Sequence record: OR352942.1
Source of the DNA: Escherichia phage AV112
DNA length: 64,000 bases
Direction: 5' to 3' (one strand)
In this document: in pieces, positions 1 to 21,704 of the stretch
Layout of the letters: each line of letters starts with the position of its first letter
How positions within the stretch are numbered: the first letter of the stretch is position 1
Notes under the pieces: model-generated
Database searches by the model: none
What the model was told of the DNA's origin: nothing
Seen by the model: only the letters and a program-made list of their open reading frames with translations
Made by a program: the position numbers and the translations under genes

Positions 1-489
1 AGGACGAGTTAGTCCAGAATCTTCAACTTTATTATAGCCATTGATAACAATTTTACCATCTTTATTTGTAATAGCAATTGTATCAATCTGAAGACCACGT
101 GAAACTCGAAGCAATTGTTGAAGGTCTTCAGCTTTAATTTCAGTAATCACAGAAGCCACTGGGAATTGAATTGGTTTATTAGGAAAAACAATGGTGCTCT
201 TGTCAGCGGCAGGCCAATAAACCGTGGAACGTGTATCTGCAATTTTAATATTACCATCGGTGTGCATTGAAATTTCAGCATCATCAGACACTAGACTCAA
301 AATGCTTAAGAAGCTATTCAAATCATAAAGTGCTACGTCAAAATCAATTTCATCGGAGATATTTGCTTCCGCATAAGTGGTGCCATTAACTGCACGAGTC
401 ATAATAAATTTACCTTGACTCAGCAGAATGCCGGAGTTAATAGAGGCAAAGTTTTTCAGAATAGCGATAGTATCTTTAGACAGTTTCAT
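1..489 (-). CDS. 45: gp45 sliding clamp (partial; C-terminal part lies beyond the window start)
   Basis: Manual reverse-complement translation from the ATG at 487-489 gives MKLSKDTIAILKNFASINSGILLSQGKFIMTRAVNGTTYAEANISD..., closely matching T4 gp45 as recalled. Not in the ORF track because it is truncated. Confidence 0.85.
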   Translation of the reverse strand, partial: MKLSKDTIAILKNFASINSGILLSQGKFIMTRAVNGTTYAEANISDEIDFDVALYDLNSFLSILSLVSDDAEISMHTDGNIKIADTRSTVYWPAADKSTIVFPNKPIQFPVASVITEIKAEDLQQLLRVSRGLQIDTIAITNKDGKIVINGYNKVEDSGLTRP

Positions 490-531
490 TTTATTTCCTT
501 TCAAGACAATTCAAAGTTTATAACAAATTTA

Positions 532-948
532 TTACGCAGCAACCATTTGCTTTTTAATAGCTTCAGGCAGTGATTCAATATATTCTGGAATTTTAGAAGC
601 AACAATTTCGCCAGCTGCAATTAGTTGTTCGTCGGCATCAACACAGTAGAAATCTTCCAGACGCTCAGAACCATCTTTATCAAGAACGATTTTTCCGCCG
701 GCTTCAATAGAATCTTTATAGTGCTTACGCATCAGATGAATCCACATATCAGATACATCATTATCAATAAAACCATAAATCATAAAACGAGTTTCTTGTG
801 GCAAAGATTGGAGTTTTTTAGCACTTGCGTCATCACAATGCAGGACCCATGCTTTACGAACACGATTATGGTTATGTGGGTTAGCGTCAGTACGGATAGA
901 AGTAACTTTCAGATCAGCAGCGGTGAAACCTTTAGCAGTAGTAAACAT
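532..948 (-). CDS. rpbA: RpbA-like RNA polymerase-binding protein (assigned by position between 45 and 46)
   Basis: 138-aa ORF in the position T4 rpbA occupies; assignment is positional, sequence not verified. Confidence 0.5.
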   Translation of the reverse strand: MFTTAKGFTAADLKVTSIRTDANPHNHNRVRKAWVLHCDDASAKKLQSLPQETRFMIYGFIDNDVSDMWIHLMRKHYKDSIEAGGKIVLDKDGSERLEDFYCVDADEQLIAAGEIVASKIPEYIESLPEAIKKQMVAA

Positions 949-960
949 ATTATTTCTCTC

Positions 961-1161
961 TTATTCGTAGAAGTCGGTAACTGTCCATGCGGAATTGCGA
1001 TTAGACATTATTTTATTATACTCATCTTTAAAAGCAGATTTGAGCATTTGTTCAGTAACAATATGTTCTTCACCTGAAAACGTATTGGTCAAAACATATT
1101 TTTTAATTTCAGGGACAACGAGAAGATGTTGGCCGGTTGAATACTCCATGTTGTTCTCCAT
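961..1161 (-). CDS. hypothetical small protein (45.2-like by position)
   Basis: 66-aa ORF between rpbA-like gene and gene 46. Confidence 0.4.
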   Translation of the reverse strand: MENNMEYSTGQHLLVVPEIKKYVLTNTFSGEEHIVTEQMLKSAFKDEYNKIMSNRNSAWTVTDFYE

Positions 1162-1203
1162 TTAATTTGATGTGGTCATTATAACCACATCTTGTTAAAG
1201 CGT

Positions 1204-2892
1204 TTATGAAACAGTCATTACCGTAAATCGTCCAACTTTGCTCATTTGAAGATGTTGTCCATAACGTTGAGGGTCATGGTCTCGATGAGAGATAATGAAC
1301 ACATTAGTATTTTGTAAACTTCCAAGAATGGTATCTATAGCCTTAACAGCCTCAGAATCGACAGCACCATCAAAAACCTCATCAAGAATCAGAGTGTTGA
1401 TTTTAACACCAGAGACCTTTTCAGCAATATCTCGCCATGTAAACAACAATGCGATATCGATACGTGCCTTTTCACCTTGACTAAATGAAGCATAACTAAA
1501 ATCTTCACGACCACGTGATTTTATAGATTCATTGAATTCTTCGTCAATAGAAAACACGTAATCAGCTTCCATGATTTTAAGATAATAGTTAATCTGCTTG
1601 TTGAACAGAGGCACATATTTTTTAATGATAGCACCTTTAATACCAGAATCTTTTAACATATCTGTGATAATACCACGATGGTATTTTTCAAGAACGATAT
1701 CAGATTTTGTTTTAATGATTTTATCAAGTTCTTTTTGAAGCAAAGCTATCTCATCAGCATGGTCGATAAATTCCGCCGAGGCTTGTTCTATTGCAGCTTT
1801 AACTTTCTTAGCTTTATCAATAGTGGCAATCATTGCTTGTTTCTTGGTACGAATATCAGATGCAAGGTCCTGTTTAGTCTTAACATTAGCTCTATATTCG
1901 TCCACTAGGACACTCAGATTATCTCTGTGGCATGTAAGTTGCTCGAATGAGTGATTACATTCGTGAAGCTTATCGGTAATCTTAGAGACAATAGGATCAC
2001 CCTGGTGCAACTGCGATGCACAAGTAGGACATGTACCACCATCATGATACATCTTAATAACTTTGTTATATGAGTCGATTTTAGATTTAATCAAGAATGC
2101 TTCTTGTCCGATCTTGTTGAATGCCTCAGTAGGGTCTTCGTCAAGAACGATATTAAGTAGACGCTCATTAGCTTCTTCAATTTCTGCTTTTAATGAACGA
2201 GCTTCTTTGGCTAGGTCGTCATACATATTCTGTAGACGCGCTACATTATCACCAGATAATTTCTTTTGTCGTTCGATATTCTCGTTATAAATCTTAATTT
2301 GTTGGATAACACCATCTTTCTTGGCATCGAGAACTTGTCCCTGGGAATTAAGTTCTCGAACTTGAGACTTATTGATTTTATCCATTTCAGCGAGTGTGCC
2401 GACTTCTAAAAGGTCTTCGACAAGTTTTCTGCGAGCAGGGGTGCTAAGAGCCATGAAAGGGGTATACCCTGCCGTCCCAAGCACAACGATTTGTTTAAAA
2501 GACGCGTATGACATTCCGATGCTGCGTTCAAATTCTTCTTGGAAGTCACGACTGCTGGCAGATTCATCAAGACGAACACCGTCAACGGAGATTTCGAAAA
2601 TATTGGGCTTTTGGCCACGTTTAATGAAGTATTTTTTACCATCGAATTCCATCCAAAGCTCAACTAAGAGCTCTTTCTTGTTCGTGCTATTAATGATTTG
2701 CCCTTTCTTAACATCACGAAATGGTTTACCGAAAAGTCCGAAAGTAATGGCTTCTAACATCGTAGATTTGCCACCACCATTTTTACCAGTGATTAATGTC
2801 TTTTGGACTTTATCTAATTGGATATCGATAAAATTTTGCCCAACAGACATTATATTTTTATAACGAACACGATTTAATTTAAATGTTTTCAC
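1204..2892 (-). CDS. 46: gp46 recombination endonuclease subunit (Rad50/SbcC-like ATPase)
   Basis: 562 aa; Walker A GKNGGGKST near the N-terminus, long coiled-coil middle with CPTC zinc hook, C-terminal LILDEVFDG Walker B/signature region; same length class as T4 gp46. Confidence 0.92.
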   Translation of the reverse strand: MKTFKLNRVRYKNIMSVGQNFIDIQLDKVQKTLITGKNGGGKSTMLEAITFGLFGKPFRDVKKGQIINSTNKKELLVELWMEFDGKKYFIKRGQKPNIFEISVDGVRLDESASSRDFQEEFERSIGMSYASFKQIVVLGTAGYTPFMALSTPARRKLVEDLLEVGTLAEMDKINKSQVRELNSQGQVLDAKKDGVIQQIKIYNENIERQKKLSGDNVARLQNMYDDLAKEARSLKAEIEEANERLLNIVLDEDPTEAFNKIGQEAFLIKSKIDSYNKVIKMYHDGGTCPTCASQLHQGDPIVSKITDKLHECNHSFEQLTCHRDNLSVLVDEYRANVKTKQDLASDIRTKKQAMIATIDKAKKVKAAIEQASAEFIDHADEIALLQKELDKIIKTKSDIVLEKYHRGIITDMLKDSGIKGAIIKKYVPLFNKQINYYLKIMEADYVFSIDEEFNESIKSRGREDFSYASFSQGEKARIDIALLFTWRDIAEKVSGVKINTLILDEVFDGAVDSEAVKAIDTILGSLQNTNVFIISHRDHDPQRYGQHLQMSKVGRFTVMTVS

Positions 2893-3754
2893 TTAAATTT
2901 TTCCTCATGAATTCAGAAACTAAAGCCTGTAAAGAACTTTGTATAGGATATCCTAAATTGACTAAATTTTTAGAAAAAGTCACATATTTAGGTTTGTTCA
3001 TTTTAACCCATTCATCGTAAAGCATATCAAAATTTTCCCAATGATATCCTTTTCTTCTAGATTTCAAATGAGTGTCTCTAACTTTAGGATTTTTCCAACT
3101 GCGTGAAACTCCAGCCGATAATGATTCTCTATATTCGGCTGTTTTAGATATTTTACGACAAGCATCCAAATGTTTTTGTTTATTAATAGGGTCACTAAAC
3201 CACTTTTGGGTCATAATAGAGACGGTTTCTTTAAATTCCTTTGAACTTGTCATAATTCTGTGTTTCTTTAAATTTTCCGGATTTTTAAACCATGCTTTTA
3301 AAGCTTGACTAATCTTAATTCTATTATCCTGATTGGAATAGTATAATGTCATTTTTATAGAATTAACTTTACAAACATTTTCGAATTCTAAAGAATACGC
3401 CTCGGCTATATTATTTAGTTCATGCGTTGTACAATTTAAATTAAATCGCCCGGTATACATTCTTTGAAGCGCGTTAATCATCTTGTGGTTGCCAGTTTTT
3501 GCCAAAATGCTATGTGCAATAAAATGGTTATAATGACTTAAATGACACAAGTTCCATTTACATGTTTTAAAATCTGGAAAAATAGATTTTGGTAGTATAT
3601 GGTGAACCTGAGTCAGTCCTTTTACTTTATTAGTTGAATTAGTTTTTATAAAGTTTAAATACTCATCAAGTCCTTCCCACGAAGGGAAGGAGGTTTTAAG
3701 AATTTTATAAATTTGAGTTTCATAATCAGTCTTCGTCATTATACGCGTCCTCAA
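2879..3754 (-). CDS. free-standing HNH homing endonuclease (Mob-like)
   Basis: 291 aa; HNH-like motif QVHHILPKS...CHLSHYNHFIAH and repeated W-x-NP-x-K-H DNA-binding modules (KAWFKNPENLKKH, KWFSDPINKQKH, SWKNPKVRDTH); overlaps the start of gene 46 by 14 nt. Confidence 0.65.
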   Translation of the reverse strand: MRTRIMTKTDYETQIYKILKTSFPSWEGLDEYLNFIKTNSTNKVKGLTQVHHILPKSIFPDFKTCKWNLCHLSHYNHFIAHSILAKTGNHKMINALQRMYTGRFNLNCTTHELNNIAEAYSLEFENVCKVNSIKMTLYYSNQDNRIKISQALKAWFKNPENLKKHRIMTSSKEFKETVSIMTQKWFSDPINKQKHLDACRKISKTAEYRESLSAGVSRSWKNPKVRDTHLKSRRKGYHWENFDMLYDEWVKMNKPKYVTFSKNLVNLGYPIQSSLQALVSEFMRKNLSENI

Positions 3755-3983
3755 TACACGCTTCAGCCATTTTAAGAATAGAGCCAGGAGTATCGTTGTC
3801 CATTATATTAAAGCTAAATTCAACAGCCCAGTCGGTGCAGACATGAACTGCTTTAACTTCATTACCTTCAACGCGTAATGGCTCAATCCAATACTTGATA
3901 GTGTTCTCGAATCCATCATCATCTTTAACGTCCATTTCAACTTCAAGCCTGAGTCCAGCATTGTTAAATTCATCTAAAGTCAT
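3726..3983 (-). CDS. hypothetical acidic protein
   Basis: 85-aa ORF between the HNH gene and gene 47. Confidence 0.4.
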   Translation of the reverse strand: MTLDEFNNAGLRLEVEMDVKDDDGFENTIKYWIEPLRVEGNEVKAVHVCTDWAVEFSFNIMDNDTPGSILKMAEACIEDAYNDED

Positions 3984-4999
3984 TGTGTTGCCTCAATATA
4001 AAGTTCGTTGGAATATTTGACCAGCGCTTCTCTGTCTTCGTCTGAGATATCTGGAATCGCGTCAATATATTCTTTAATGATATCTTGAAGAGATTTAATC
4101 TCGATTTCCTGGTCGTCATCAGATTCAACACTGTTATCAACTTTAGAAACCATACGAAGAGAGTGAACTACTTTTTCAAGTTCAGATTCAAACTTAGTCA
4201 ACTCTGAATCAATTTCTGATACTATAACACGTACGGCTAGATTAGTATAATCAGAATAATTGATTTTGCCTTTAAACGGATAAGTGATTCGTCGATGCCA
4301 TGTTGTTTCGTTAGGAATAAATTCCATACGTTCAACATCAGTGTCAAATACCCAAAATCCGCGCGGGTCGTTCTCATCACCTGCAGTAAGGGTCCATGGT
4401 GTCCCAATATATTTGACGTTAGCAGCTTCAGAGATTGTGTGGAAGTGGCCGGACCAGACTTGTTTATAGGTCTTTAAGAAATCAGGTTCAAGCCCATGAG
4501 ACTTCATTCCTTTATAGAAATAAAAACCATTCAGTTCCCAGTGCCCAACACAATACGCTGCGGAAGAAGTCTTGATGTGCTCTAAGATTTCACCTGTATT
4601 TTCTTCGCACATCCATGGAACGATATCAATCAGACATCCGTCAAAATCTACAGTAGTTGGATGCTCGTAAATAGTAAAGTTTTCAAATTGAGTTAACAAT
4701 TCAGAAACAGTGTTAGGTGTTATTGTATTCTTAAACGCCATGTCATGGTTTCCTATCGTGACATGAACGTGAATGCCTGCTTTAGAAATCATATCAACGA
4801 TTTCACGATTGAATTCCATTGTACGATGTGTTATTGCTTTACGGACGTCAAACCAATCACCGTACTGAATCCAAGTTTTAATCCCATGTTTCTTAGAGTA
4901 TTCAATTGCTTGACGAATACCATCACGTTGAATATCTTGAACCCATGGGTCGTCTTGTTTGACTCCGATATGGAAGTCGCCTAAGTGCAAAATTTTCAT
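3980..4999 (-). CDS. 47: gp47 recombination endonuclease subunit (Mre11/SbcD-like phosphoesterase)
   Basis: 339 aa; N-terminal MKILHLGDFHIG and GNHD metallophosphatase motifs; same length as T4 gp47. Confidence 0.92.
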   Translation of the reverse strand: MKILHLGDFHIGVKQDDPWVQDIQRDGIRQAIEYSKKHGIKTWIQYGDWFDVRKAITHRTMEFNREIVDMISKAGIHVHVTIGNHDMAFKNTITPNTVSELLTQFENFTIYEHPTTVDFDGCLIDIVPWMCEENTGEILEHIKTSSAAYCVGHWELNGFYFYKGMKSHGLEPDFLKTYKQVWSGHFHTISEAANVKYIGTPWTLTAGDENDPRGFWVFDTDVERMEFIPNETTWHRRITYPFKGKINYSDYTNLAVRVIVSEIDSELTKFESELEKVVHSLRMVSKVDNSVESDDDQEIEIKSLQDIIKEYIDAIPDISDEDREALVKYSNELYIEATQ

Positions 5000-5040
5000 A
5001 TTATTTCCTCATTAGTTAATTCATTCTATCATCCGCTTAT

Positions 5041-5071
5041 AAAGCAAAAAAAGGAACTCCGAAGAGTTCCT
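5041..5071 (-). terminator. rho-independent terminator (8-bp stem, UUCG tetraloop, U-run)
   Basis: Plus strand aggaactc-cgaa-gagttcct preceded by aaagcaaaaa; on the minus strand this is a hairpin followed by UUUUUGCUUU. Confidence 0.55.
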
Positions 5072-5243
5072 ATCCACATAGTACACCATACAGAGGCTCA
5101 TTTGAACTTTTAAATCGAATGGGCTTGTATGTAATAGTTCCTTCGGCTTTAGCTTTATCATAAGACTCTTTAAAACGCCTCATTCTTTCTGCTTTGCCTT
5201 TACGGATTTTATCGAAATTTTCAGAGGTCAGGTCGTTCGTCAT
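5070..5243 (-). CDS. hypothetical small basic protein (57 aa, 47.1-like position)
   Basis: Manual translation MTNDLTSENFDKIRKGKAERMRRFKESYDKAKAEGTITYKPIRFKSSNEPLYGVLCG; GAGGTGA ribosome-binding site upstream; below the track length cutoff. Confidence 0.35.
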   Translation of the reverse strand: MTNDLTSENFDKIRKGKAERMRRFKESYDKAKAEGTITYKPIRFKSSNEPLYGVLCG

Positions 5244-5282
5244 GCATAATCACCTCTCAGAAAATACCTAAATCGATTTCTC

Positions 5283-5504
5283 TCATCGTTTCCACCATTT
5301 CTTAACTTGAAATGAGTCAACCCACACGAGTTGTTTTGGGTCGGCCCTTACAACAGGTGGACAAATTTCTGTAATAGAACTGTCGTGATATTCCTTTTCA
5401 GAGATTTTAACACAAAGAGGACCTCCCAATTTAAGGGTGAACCCTGCGTTCAGCTTAAGACGTTTAAACTTTGTTTGAACTAGCGCCATTAATGATGTCC
5501 TCAA
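5283..5504 (-). CDS. hypothetical protein
   Basis: 73-aa ORF in the interval where T4 carries alpha-glucosyltransferase. Confidence 0.35.
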   Translation of the reverse strand: MRTSLMALVQTKFKRLKLNAGFTLKLGGPLCVKISEKEYHDSSITEICPPVVRADPKQLVWVDSFQVKKWWKR

Positions 5505-5787
5505 TAGCCTGACGAGTAGTAACCCACTGGATTTTAATTAACTTGTCATTATATGGTTGTCGTAGAATATCCCGAGATTTCTTAATAGCATATTCGTAAG
5601 CTTCGAAGTTGTTTTGAATTGCTGCTTCTTGAGCATGAGCATAAAGACGGTTTAGTTCAAAACGATTCTTTTTAAGAATCTTTTCGGATTTTTTACGTGC
5701 TTCAGCTTCATTTTTCTTTTGGATTTCTTGTAGCATTTTAGCTACTGCATCTTCTGCTTCTTTATTTTCAATAATCTCGGTAGTCAT
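5464..5787 (-). CDS. hypothetical coiled-coil protein
   Basis: 107-aa ORF, Lys/Glu-rich. Confidence 0.4.
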   Translation of the reverse strand: MTTEIIENKEAEDAVAKMLQEIQKKNEAEARKKSEKILKKNRFELNRLYAHAQEAAIQNNFEAYEYAIKKSRDILRQPYNDKLIKIQWVTTRQAIEDIINGASSNKV

Positions 5788-5788
5788 A

Positions 5789-5998
5789 TTATCTCATTAA
5801 ATTAAAATAAAAACGTCCATCCTCTTCAATACGGAACTCATACTCAACCGGAGTCCCATTTATCGAAAATGACACGTCATGTGGGTTCAAAGGGTCGATG
5901 TCAAAATTAATTTTAAATTCACGACCCAACAGTTTTACCAAATAAGGGATTGCTTCGTCAAAAGGTTCTTCTAAGTAGTTAGAGATGTCAATTGTCAT
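5789..5998 (-). CDS. hypothetical protein (start uncertain)
   Basis: Track ORF 5789-6082 overlaps the 3' end of gene 55; an internal Met start would reduce the overlap. Confidence 0.3.
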
Positions 5999-6545
5999 CC
6001 TCATATAAAAAATCCAAACTAGGCGAATCGCTAACAACTTCCTTCTTTTCAGCCCCAGGAGCTTTATAAGCGGATTCTTCATAATGCGTCATTTTATCGT
6101 AGATGTCTTGAATAAACGTTTCATCTACCAACGCTACCATATCATCGTCATGACTGTCGTAGACGTTATGAACGAAGTAACTATATTTCTTTGCAACTTC
6201 CTTACGTTCTTTTTTGATACGTTGGACAAAAGCATTAAAACAAGCTCGAGTTATGTATGCATGTGGGTTATTGTACTTAGTTTCGTCGAAATTATGAAGT
6301 CCCTTAATAGAGGCTTCAATCCCATCTGCAATCATCTCCTGCTTCCAAGACTGGGTATATCCTGAAAAGTTGAAACGTTTGGACAGGCCTTCGGCGATAA
6401 GCATAATTGCTAAACCGATGGTATCATTCTGACGAATAATTTTGTTTGGGTCTTTATTATTTAAGAGCTCCTTTTTCCACTCGATTATAGCGGCGAGAAG
6501 CTCTTTATTATTCACATAGTTATTTTTAGGTTTTTGTTCAGTCAT
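5988..6545 (-). CDS. 55: gp55 late-transcription sigma factor
   Basis: 185 aa; near-identical over long stretches to T4 gp55 as recalled ([71 protein letters not shown]). Confidence 0.9.
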
Positions 6546-6574
6546 AAGTACCTCTTAGCTCAATTCATAGGTCT

Positions 6575-6610
6575 ATTATATCATAATATTTAGAGACCTA
6601 TCTTAAAGCA
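6575..6610 (-). promoter_or_regulatory. candidate promoter upstream of gene 55: -10 TATAAT inside an 8-bp inverted repeat, MotA-box-like TGCTTTA upstream
   Basis: Plus strand ataggtct...agacctat flanks attata (minus TATAAT); RC of taaagca is TGCTTTA, but its spacing to this -10 is about 23 nt, longer than I recall for middle promoters. Confidence 0.3.
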
Positions 6611-20714: not shown

Positions 20715-21704
20715 TTATTTATAGTAAGAATTATGATTTTCGAGATAGACTTGTTCAAGGAAGTCATCCCAGAAACTCATATCTACTTTTTGTTGCATAC
20801 CGTTCTTGGCAGCTTGTTCTGATGCATGTTCAACTTGGTCAACGATATCTTCTAGGAATTCTTGTACAGTTTTAAACGTATGTTTACCAAGCTTAACATC
20901 GAGAATAAATGGAGCATCCTGAAGTGGGTAAACCAGGTCGCCGGTTTTATAAATTTCTAATAGTTGAAGTCCACCACGACATGCATGACTCAATGCTTTC
21001 CAGTCAATACCTTCGTTAGCTTCTGCCTTACGAGCACGTTCACCATAGTTCTCTTCCAGTTTAACCAGGATGGCATTGAACTCTTTATTGGTTAACGTGT
21101 CTTGGAATTTACGGTCTAACAGATTATAGAATGTTTGCTTACCTGTTTTCTCGTTTTCAGTTTCAACCCACGAAGCAAATTCACCTACAGGCAGAACATT
21201 CTTCATATGTGATAAACGAATTACTGCACCATTATCAAAGTATTGTCCCCATTCATTAGAACGTTTAAGGGCTTGACGAAGAACAGCCAGTCGAGAACCC
21301 TTGACACCGTATTTAGAAGCTTGTTTACGGACATACCCTAAATAAGATTTCATGTTAGTGGTATAGAAACGAGACCTGTTATCTTGAATATACTTCCATA
21401 CATCAGGCAAATCGGATTTAACTACTAAACTTGGTGGAGTGTGAAGCATATCTAATGCGACGGTTTCGCCATCTGCAGCTAGTTTAAAGAAATATTTGAG
21501 ACTATACAACTCATGGTCCACGTCGTCTTTTGTGTTCTTAGAAGATGTGTTATTTGTGTTCTTGCTCATATGTTCTTTAACGTTACCGGTCAAGATATCA
21601 CGAGCATGAGGGACATAAATTTCTTTAAAATCGACGTCAGATTCAGGAGTAGACGTTCCATAAAGGTGGCTACCAAAGTAGCCTTTCATAATTGTTTTCA
21701 TCAT
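20715..21704 (-). CDS. Pol-beta-superfamily minimal nucleotidyltransferase
   Basis: 329 aa; N-terminal GSHLYGTSTPESDVDF fits the hG[GS]-x(9-13)-D-x-[DE] nucleotidyltransferase signature. Confidence 0.55.
   Translation of the reverse strand: MMKTIMKGYFGSHLYGTSTPESDVDFKEIYVPHARDILTGNVKEHMSKNTNNTSSKNTKDDVDHELYSLKYFFKLAADGETVALDMLHTPPSLVVKSDLPDVWKYIQDNRSRFYTTNMKSYLGYVRKQASKYGVKGSRLAVLRQALKRSNEWGQYFDNGAVIRLSHMKNVLPVGEFASWVETENEKTGKQTFYNLLDRKFQDTLTNKEFNAILVKLEENYGERARKAEANEGIDWKALSHACRGGLQLLEIYKTGDLVYPLQDAPFILDVKLGKHTFKTVQEFLEDIVDQVEHASEQAAKNGMQQKVDMSFWDDFLEQVYLENHNSYYK

Follow-up and report, generated by a model that had tools for sequence, protein, structure and literature searches.

A probable Mob-family HNH homing endonuclease gene immediately upstream of recombination gene 46 in Mosigvirus phages

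Introduction

Several mob genes of phage T4 are promoterless cassettes, promoters for downstream genes can sit inside endonuclease open reading frames (ORFs), and the targets of two of the encoded enzymes, MobD and MobC, are not known (PMC2988022). The gene for a further member, MobE, is promoterless, lies directly upstream of nrdB and encodes an enzyme that nicks the nrdB 5' region in phage T2 (PMC2790892). The present analysis concerns an ORF of similar placement, hereafter called the mob-like ORF, which lies immediately upstream of recombination gene 46 in a stretch of 64,000 nucleotides (nt) from Escherichia phage AV112 (OR352942.1); this whole stretch is referred to as the window. Bases 1-6600 of the window are 100% identical to Escherichia phage AV113 (OR352943.1; Straboviridae, Mosigvirus). 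Sequence comparisons and a structural model make it very likely that the mob-like ORF encodes a free-standing HNH homing endonuclease of the T4 Mob family.

Both T4 MobE and the mob-like ORF are of the HNH type, free-standing, promoterless, co-directional with their neighbours and placed immediately upstream of a conserved gene of essential function; both are also absent from relatives and have co-converted flanking polymorphisms. MobE is located between nrdA and nrdB and targets the nrdB 5' region, whereas gene 46 is the locus and the presumed target of the mob-like ORF. Similarity to MobE (of phage RB43) is confined to the N-terminal nuclease domain, the N-terminal third of the mob-like protein, which differs from MobE in its three NUMOD3-like repeats and distinct C-terminal domain. 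A strand-specific nick has been demonstrated for MobE, whereas nicking or cutting by the mob-like protein is proposed by analogy. Over most of its length the closest T4 paralogues are MobD, encoded at nrdC.11/mobD.1, and MobC, encoded at nrdG/nrdD rather than by gene 46, and identity to either is below 40%. A comparable modular plan is generally known from I-HmuI, an HNH nicking enzyme of phage SPO1 with an N-terminal HNH domain, DNA-tracking helices of NUMOD3 type and, at the C-terminus, a helix-turn-helix domain; I-HmuI is intron-encoded, whereas the mob-like ORF is free-standing. Literature searches for a described endonuclease at 46/47, or for its target, found none, and the AV113 paper is silent on the gene.

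Results

The mob-like ORF lies between gene 46.2 and gene 46, on the same strand as both, as a separate ORF and not in an intron or intein. The gene order is 47, 46.2, mob-like ORF, 46:

3980-4999, minus strand: gene 47
3726-3983, minus strand: gene 46.2/Y03C (Pfam T4_Y03C, 3.6e-44)
2879-3739, minus strand: mob-like ORF of 286 amino acids (aa), from ATG 3739 to TAA 2881-2879, assigned from the ORF call, annotation, PHROG 655 and Mob homology
1204-2892, minus strand: gene 46, SMC/Rad50-like

The longest frame from the mechanical ORF call runs from TTG 3754 to 2879 on the minus strand and comprises 291 aa, the length given in the first-pass annotation made from the window's letters. That frame is real, but its true start is probably ATG 3739, giving 286 aa, because a Shine-Dalgarno (SD) sequence GAGGA lies 8 nt upstream (3752-3748), all records annotate ATG 3739 in GenBank, and this start codon is shared with gene 46.1 of relatives. 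The overlap with the start of gene 46 reported by the same annotation was recovered: gene 46 starts in the window at GTG 2892-2890, its coding sequence takes in the TAA stop (2881-2879) at a distance of 11 nt from its beginning, and the overlap amounts to 14 nt.

The protein was assigned to PHROG 655 'homing endonuclease' at 7e-32. Matches by tblastn were obtained to T4 MobC (2e-18, 36% identity over 59% of the query), T4 MobD (4e-13, 29% identity over 82% of the query) and RB43 MobE (9e-9), and homologues in other phages were matched at 1e-96 to 2e-65. These last matches, together with 776 homologues at E<=0.001 in an exhaustive HMMER search, argue that the ORF is not a chance frame; the N-terminal 120 residues were the most widely conserved. 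The near-identical gene is labelled 'MobD-like homing endonuclease' in the F2 and pEK20 records; across the F2, pEK20 and SQ17 records the labels are that one, 'HNH endonuclease' or 'mobile endonuclease', and the AV113 record has 'hypothetical protein'. The HNH motif, HHILPKS...CHLSHYNHFIAH or HHILPKS...WNLCHLSHYNHFIAH, corresponds to residues 46-76 of the 286-aa protein. Residues H46, H47, N63, H72 and H76 were invariant in an 83-sequence alignment, and Y27 and P50 were also invariant in alignments of 56-83 homologues. The His-His...Asn...His...His spacing (46/47-63-72-76) is one that we take to be closer to the four-residue colicin-type motif. The structure predicted with AlphaFold2 was of high confidence, with a pLDDT of 95.4 over the full length, 93.3 for residues 1-117 and 97-98 at the core strands and helix. 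The His-His pair lies on the strand 43-47, N63 opens the strand 64-68, and H72 and H76 lie on the helix 69-82; past this core the model forms three helix hairpins (137-228) and then a small helical domain (232-285). Three regions were delimited accordingly:

3494-3613, minus strand: predicted HNH beta-beta-alpha core, residues 43-82 (strands 43-47 and 64-68, helix 69-82; H46, H47, N63, H72 and H76), from AlphaFold2, the invariant columns and the Pfam HNH matches of the homologues P0028 and P0034
3053-3334, minus strand: three NUMOD3-like helical-hairpin repeats, residues 136-229, presumed DNA-binding, from a repeat test, helix pairs in 137-228 and NUMOD3 matches in homologues
2882-3052, minus strand: C-terminal helical domain, residues 230-286, presumed sequence-specific DNA-binding module, from helices 232-285 and the conserved RKGxxWxN..LY..W....P....F...LV..GYP

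The repeats WFKNPENLKKH, WFSDPINKQKH and WKNPKVRDTH lie within units of ~32 aa in residues 136-229. In a shuffle test the pairs R1/R2 and R2/R3 scored above all 1000 shuffles, and the R1/R3 score was attained by 39/1000. The C-terminal domain is conserved with homologues from other loci. Searches of the query protein against Pfam and NCBIfam gave sub-threshold noise only, such as GerD, and no HNH, and NUMOD3 (PF07460) had no match in the query at E <= 0.1 in the Pfam search. Among 57 homologues, Pfam found NUMOD3 in 19 (best 2.1e-16), HNH in eight and I-HmuI_NUMOD-like in four. Two of the homologues, P0028 (pairwise BLASTP 4e-19) and P0034 (6e-22), pass the Pfam HNH gathering score, and their HNH stretch aligns onto query residues ~40-65; P0028 also has three NUMOD3 stretches, the best-scoring of which aligns with query repeat R3. 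Neither PDB sequence searches nor Foldseek linked the query significantly, by sequence or by fold, to a solved structure: phmmer and two profile searches of PDB sequences gave no HNH hit of significance, with designed repeat proteins and McrA (E = 1.2) ranking highest, and Foldseek with the full model against the PDB returned none at E <= 0.001 and weak teneurin hits. The predicted architecture begins at the N-terminus with a beta-beta-alpha metal nuclease, continues through three NUMOD3-like helical repeats and closes at the C-terminus with a helical domain that would bind DNA; nuclease activity is inferred by analogy. The HNH assignment in the first-pass annotation finds support in the MobD/MobC/MobE homology, PHROG 655, the five invariant residues and the predicted core; its three W-x-NP-x-K-H repeats are real as repeats, with a consensus that is only approximate.

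Within Mosigvirus, the 825 nt specific to the endonuclease were found near-identical (99.4-100%) in only nine records, representing eight RB69-like coliphages (AV113, phiEC1, PNJ-9, G2469, F2, SQ17, 172859UKE1 and pEK20), of about 144. About 135 further Mosigvirus records span the flanks without endonuclease DNA, and these non-carriers hold a 79-aa gene 46.1 (DUF5487, 4.7e-13) at the endonuclease's place. All eight carrier copies are intact and show 0-2 amino-acid differences. The junctions were mapped by alignment of eight carrier (mob+) and seven non-carrier (mob-) Mosigvirus loci:

3718-3752, minus strand: translation start region shared with 46.1, with SD GAGGA 3752-3748, ATG 3739-3737 and the first 7 codons (MTKTDYE)
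2831-2892, minus strand: mob-linked substitution patch, gene 46 codons 1-21, with 13 fixed differences; nucleotide diversity (pi) = 0 among carriers and 0.21 between carriers and non-carriers
2890-2906, minus strand: gene 46 initiation region within the cassette, with SD GAGGA 2906-2902 inside the mob coding sequence and GTG 2892-2890 (ATG in mob- Mosigviruses)

The upstream homology breakpoint lies at 3717/3718, to the left of the shared start region, which itself overlaps the 3' end of 46.2 (stop codon 3728-3726). On the other side homology returns at the gene 46 start, yet the carriers differ there from the non-carriers at the fixed sites of the patch, comprising ATG>GTG, S3T, Q12K, G19Q and P21F together with synonymous changes. 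No fixed differences between the eight carriers and seven non-carriers were found deeper in gene 46 or to the right of 3718. Codons 4-11 of Mosigvirus gene 46 are equal in both classes, so that the linked changes are concentrated in codons 12-21. As read from these alignments, the endonuclease in Mosigvirus replaced gene 46.1 from codon 8 on and brought with it a changed gene 46 5' end. The patch at 2831-2892 would mark where the mobile cassette ends downstream, and Gelderlandvirus and Tequatrovirus show the same limit with a patch of analogous kind. The patch is a candidate target or immunity region. The possibility that 46.1 is a decayed remnant of the endonuclease was rejected, since it is a distinct DUF5487 protein with only the first 7 codons in common. 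The first-pass annotation had described an invasion of the 46-47 interval: a mobile gene does occupy the site, but it replaced 46.1, kept the start and first 7 codons of that gene and changed the 5' end of gene 46. The comparison of the interval across relatives that it had proposed showed a presence/absence polymorphism, the ORF being kept in 9 of the ~144 Mosigvirus records rather than in all relatives, with its catalytic residues present.

Recent horizontal transfer is indicated, with unusual clarity, by the contrast between the cassette and its flanks, from which the carriers' divergence is 10-25 times lower in the cassette. Over the cassette (2831-3717) carrier pairs differ at 0-5 of 887 sites, and over genes 46, 46.2 and 47 at 54-242 of 2909, a disparity that gave Fisher p <= 2e-4 for all 28 carrier pairs. 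Among carriers pi is 0.003 in the cassette and 0.017-0.068 in the flanks. By its flanks, AV113 is nearest to the non-carrier S143_2 and 172859UKE1 to the non-carrier APCEc01, and the species of the carriers (mar005p1, JS09) include non-carriers too. The endonuclease-specific DNA has a GC content of 30.1%, against 37-39% around it. On this sequence evidence the endonuclease cassette has spread recently by horizontal transfer in Mosigvirus. As a separate matter, pi in gene 47 (window 3984-4999) was 0.068 among the eight carriers and 0.016 among the seven non-carriers, an excess driven by PNJ-9 and pEK20, which suggests mosaic recombination independent of the cassette.

The same site is occupied in other genera. 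Endonucleases of the same clade and orientation are found immediately upstream of gene 46 in T6/T2, in Melville and, as P0003, on a metagenomic contig; they too are polymorphic within the genus and accompanied by a VGQ-type gene 46 5' end. In Tequatrovirus the clade was present in 72/519 records. Just upstream of its gene 46, T6 encodes a protein of 45% identity, whose T2 counterpart has been thrown out of frame by the loss of 2 nt. In T4 no endonuclease is present here and the interval contains only the small ORFs 46.1 and 46.2, in line with the small ORFs that the first-pass annotation gave for T4. In Gelderlandvirus 5/16 records are positive, Melville and three other phages having a 55%-identical protein between 47 and 46, and S16 and STML-198 are without the endonuclease. 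The metagenomic homologue P0003, of 54% identity, lies between gp47-like and gp46-like genes. The junctions differ among these lineages. Whereas the AV113 cassette replaces 46.1 from codon 8, that of Melville occupies the entire 47-46 space, and that of T6, of 871 nt, lies inside the first codons of gene 46 with 46.1 still in place. The T6 endonuclease ORF opens with the old gene 46 start GTGAAGAATTTTAAACTT (the old GTG and 6 codons), followed by 19 nt identical to 46.1 codons 5-11, and the cassette ends in a new, duplicated gene 46 start ATGAAATCATTTAAACTT.

In each genus carrier/non-carrier homology is back at codon 21/22 of gene 46, and the codons before it distinguish the two classes. Naive gene 46 reads ...YQNIMSVGG(N/S)PIDIQ in Mosigvirus non-carriers, RB14, UFV13, Sf24, S16 and STML-198, and the carrier gene of all three genera reads ...Y(K/S)NIMSVGQ(NF/NG/VP)(I/V)DIQ. 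The nucleotide changes common to carriers fall in codon 12, codon 17 (GT[AG]>GTT) and codon 19 (GGN>CAA). T4 departs from this pattern: although it lacks the endonuclease, codons 7-19 of its gene 46 match the carrier allele at every nucleotide (KYKNIMSVGQNG), the comparison being with T6, whereas the non-carrier Tequatroviruses RB14, UFV13 and Sf24 have the naive RYQNIMSVGGNP. The T4 arrangement is the expected product of a deletion between the 18-bp imperfect direct repeats that flank the T6 cassette, which suggests that T4 is a former carrier of a T6-type endonuclease. When IMG/VR was scanned for exact matches to the pattern of the Tequatrovirus gene 46 patch, only two loci came up, too few for an association test.

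Distant homologues with the architecture of the mob-like protein were also seen at other loci of uncultured, metagenomic T4-like phages: P0028 has a NUDIX gene on one side and lysozyme e, which it directly precedes, on the other, and P0034 lies between regA and DNA polymerase, directly upstream of gene 43. Judged by these placements, members of the wider family seem to settle just 5' of several conserved genes.

The signals for transcription and translation at the locus were scanned for motifs. A consensus scan for the late promoter (TATAAATA) found none near the locus, the closest being at 20716, and a sigma-70 scan around the locus did no better than shuffles. Matches resembling the middle promoter motif recognised through the MotA box numbered three in 4.2 kb, against 0.15 expected from shuffles. 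Two sites bear on the mob-like ORF and gene 46:

5023-5071, minus strand: upstream of gene 47, a terminator-like hairpin (5071-5052) and, after it, a middle promoter motif like the MotA box (5048-5023), from motif scans
3000-3026, minus strand: TATGCTTTACGATGAATGGGTTAAAAT, similar to a MotA-dependent middle promoter, within the mob ORF at 134 nt 5' of the start of gene 46, from a motif scan

The first site is likely the start of a 47-46.2-mob-46 transcription unit that feeds the promoterless mob gene, and the 47 transcript probably serves as the endonuclease message, because this hairpin and motif precede gene 47, no late promoter is nearby and the sigma-70 scan was null. In the Melville gene, which is 67% identical, the position of the internal motif is occupied too, and the 46.1 of non-carriers lacks the motif. 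The motif may serve gene 46 as a promoter carried on the cassette, which would fit the published statement on promoters embedded in endonuclease ORFs (PMC2988022). At the level of translation, the GAGGA of gene 46 lies 9 nt 5' of its GTG, within the mob coding sequence, and in non-carrier Mosigviruses an ATGA stop/start overlap joins 46.1 and gene 46. The suggestion in the first-pass annotation that stop/start coupling of the mob-like ORF with gene 46 may now matter for gene 46 expression is plausible. The GTG start was considered as a sign of down-tuned gene 46 and rejected as uninformative, since gene 46 also starts with GTG in T4, RB14, UFV13 and Sf24, all mob-, and with ATG in the carrier T6.

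Discussion

The identity of the gene, its patchy distribution, its recent horizontal spread and the patch linked to it are observations around which a homing mechanism can be proposed. The mob-like ORF would be transcribed within the 47-46.2-mob-46 unit, without a clear promoter of its own, and translated from the ribosome-binding site and start codon of the displaced 46.1. During co-infection with an endonuclease-free relative the enzyme would nick or cut the 5' end of the relative's gene 46, the likeliest site being codons 12-21 (5'-CAAAACATCATGTCGGTAGGTGGGAATCCT-3'), roughly nt 34-66, of the naive gene. Repair by recombination, with the carrier genome as template, would then bring in the ~0.9-kb cassette, consisting of the endonuclease gene and the substituted gene 46 codons 1-21, presumed resistant to cutting. 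Cleavage of the gene 46 5' end is proposed because of the analogy with T4 MobE and nrdB. The exact target is inferred from the 13 fixed differences confined to codons 1-21, the related endonucleases at the same site and the VGQ.. form of the carrier allele in all three genera, and the patch would confer immunity. Gene 46 encodes the Rad50-like subunit of the gp46/47 nuclease, which possibly helps to process the breaks on which homing depends ('possibly gp46, gp47'; PMC2988022).

Other explanations of the locus were weighed against a homing endonuclease. That the ORF is a chance or mis-called frame without a protein product is scarcely credible: the 'hypothetical protein' of the AV113 record and the lack of a Pfam domain would suit it, and it is excluded by hundreds of homologues, a confident structure prediction, a good SD and ATG and the conservation of the frame in all carriers. 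It is unlikely that the gene is a Mob-family relic which no longer homes, being dead or without targets, and is kept for the SD, start codon and possibly middle promoter of gene 46. The SD and GTG of gene 46 do lie in the cassette, the MotA-like motif stands 134 nt upstream of that start and at the same position in Melville, the query scores below the Pfam HNH threshold, and decay occurs in this clade, as the T2 frameshift shows. Yet none of the eight copies is disrupted, they differ by 0-2 amino acids and keep every invariant catalytic residue, a near-identical cassette on flanks that are 2-8% apart points to recent transfer and not to old vertical retention, and most Mosigviruses express gene 46 without the endonuclease.

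Very improbable in our view is a non-homing accessory nuclease or DNA-binding protein, acting in attack on host DNA, anti-defence or phage competition, that took the place of 46.1 through ordinary homologous recombination and became more widespread by its benefit to the phage. A selective sweep would account for the patchy distribution and low diversity as well as homing does, and phages have recruited nucleases resembling homing endonucleases, such as the HNH protein of HK97 with terminase (PMC10448857) and SegB in the amplification of anti-defence loci that it drives (PMC13096335). What such a protein would leave unexplained is that three diverged lineages of one clade occupy exactly the same site by gene 46 in three genera, each with a changed gene 46 5' end, and this association points to a site-specific mobile element and not to a freely placed accessory gene. 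The distant homologues directly upstream of DNA polymerase and lysozyme are likewise in positions typical of homing endonucleases. Both the relic and the accessory protein fit less well than a homing endonuclease because of the intact, near-identical copies on diverged backgrounds and the single-site association across three genera with a changed target gene.

The mob-like ORF is thus an uncharacterised new member of the well-known set of T-even homing endonucleases, apparently one that was recently active. Such genes are expected in T-even phages, and the known workings of homing elements are unchanged by it. Its predicted target is narrow and testable, being codons 12-21 of gene 46 with VGG(N/S)P in the naive and VGQ.. 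in the carrier form, and natural donor/recipient pairs are present in culture collections, as with AV113 against moskry or APCEc01. The cassette offers a case in which the start signals of a neighbour are taken over and those of an important recombination gene are supplied anew, and a plausible reading is given of the odd 5' end of T4 gene 46. A broader interpretation is advanced tentatively, as a possibility that falls short of being probable: one Mob clade may have specialised on the first ~65 nt of gene 46 and cycled through at least three T-even genera, with T4 maybe a former carrier and the Mosigvirus cassette, as the source of the SD, the GTG start and possibly a MotA-dependent promoter, maybe now part of gene 46 expression.

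Neighbouring genes

Several features of the surrounding genes were noted in the course of the comparison. In F2 (locus sequence 1230-1946, plus strand) and G2469 (1285-2001, plus strand) a second ORF of 238 aa, annotated 'homing endonuclease', occupies the other strand between 45.2 and the gene 46 3' end. The window does not have this ORF, and a Pfam search of it gave weak zinc-ribbon hits only. In these two phages, therefore, gene 46 has a putative mobile nuclease gene on either side. A 68-aa ORF equivalent to a-gt.3 (T4 y03G; window 5283-5489, minus strand) is annotated in S143_2, SQ17, 172859UKE1 and others and unannotated in the AV113, PNJ-9 and pEK20 records, which looks like an annotation gap and not a sequence difference. 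In G2469 gene 45 (sliding clamp; locus sequence 1-544) is annotated as two overlapping ORFs, probably through a frameshift or sequencing error. PNJ-9 has a G>T change at the equivalent of window position 3733, in the 46.2/mob overlap (ATGACTAAG), which creates an earlier 46.2 stop, and its 46.2 is annotated 2 codons shorter (252 vs 258 nt).

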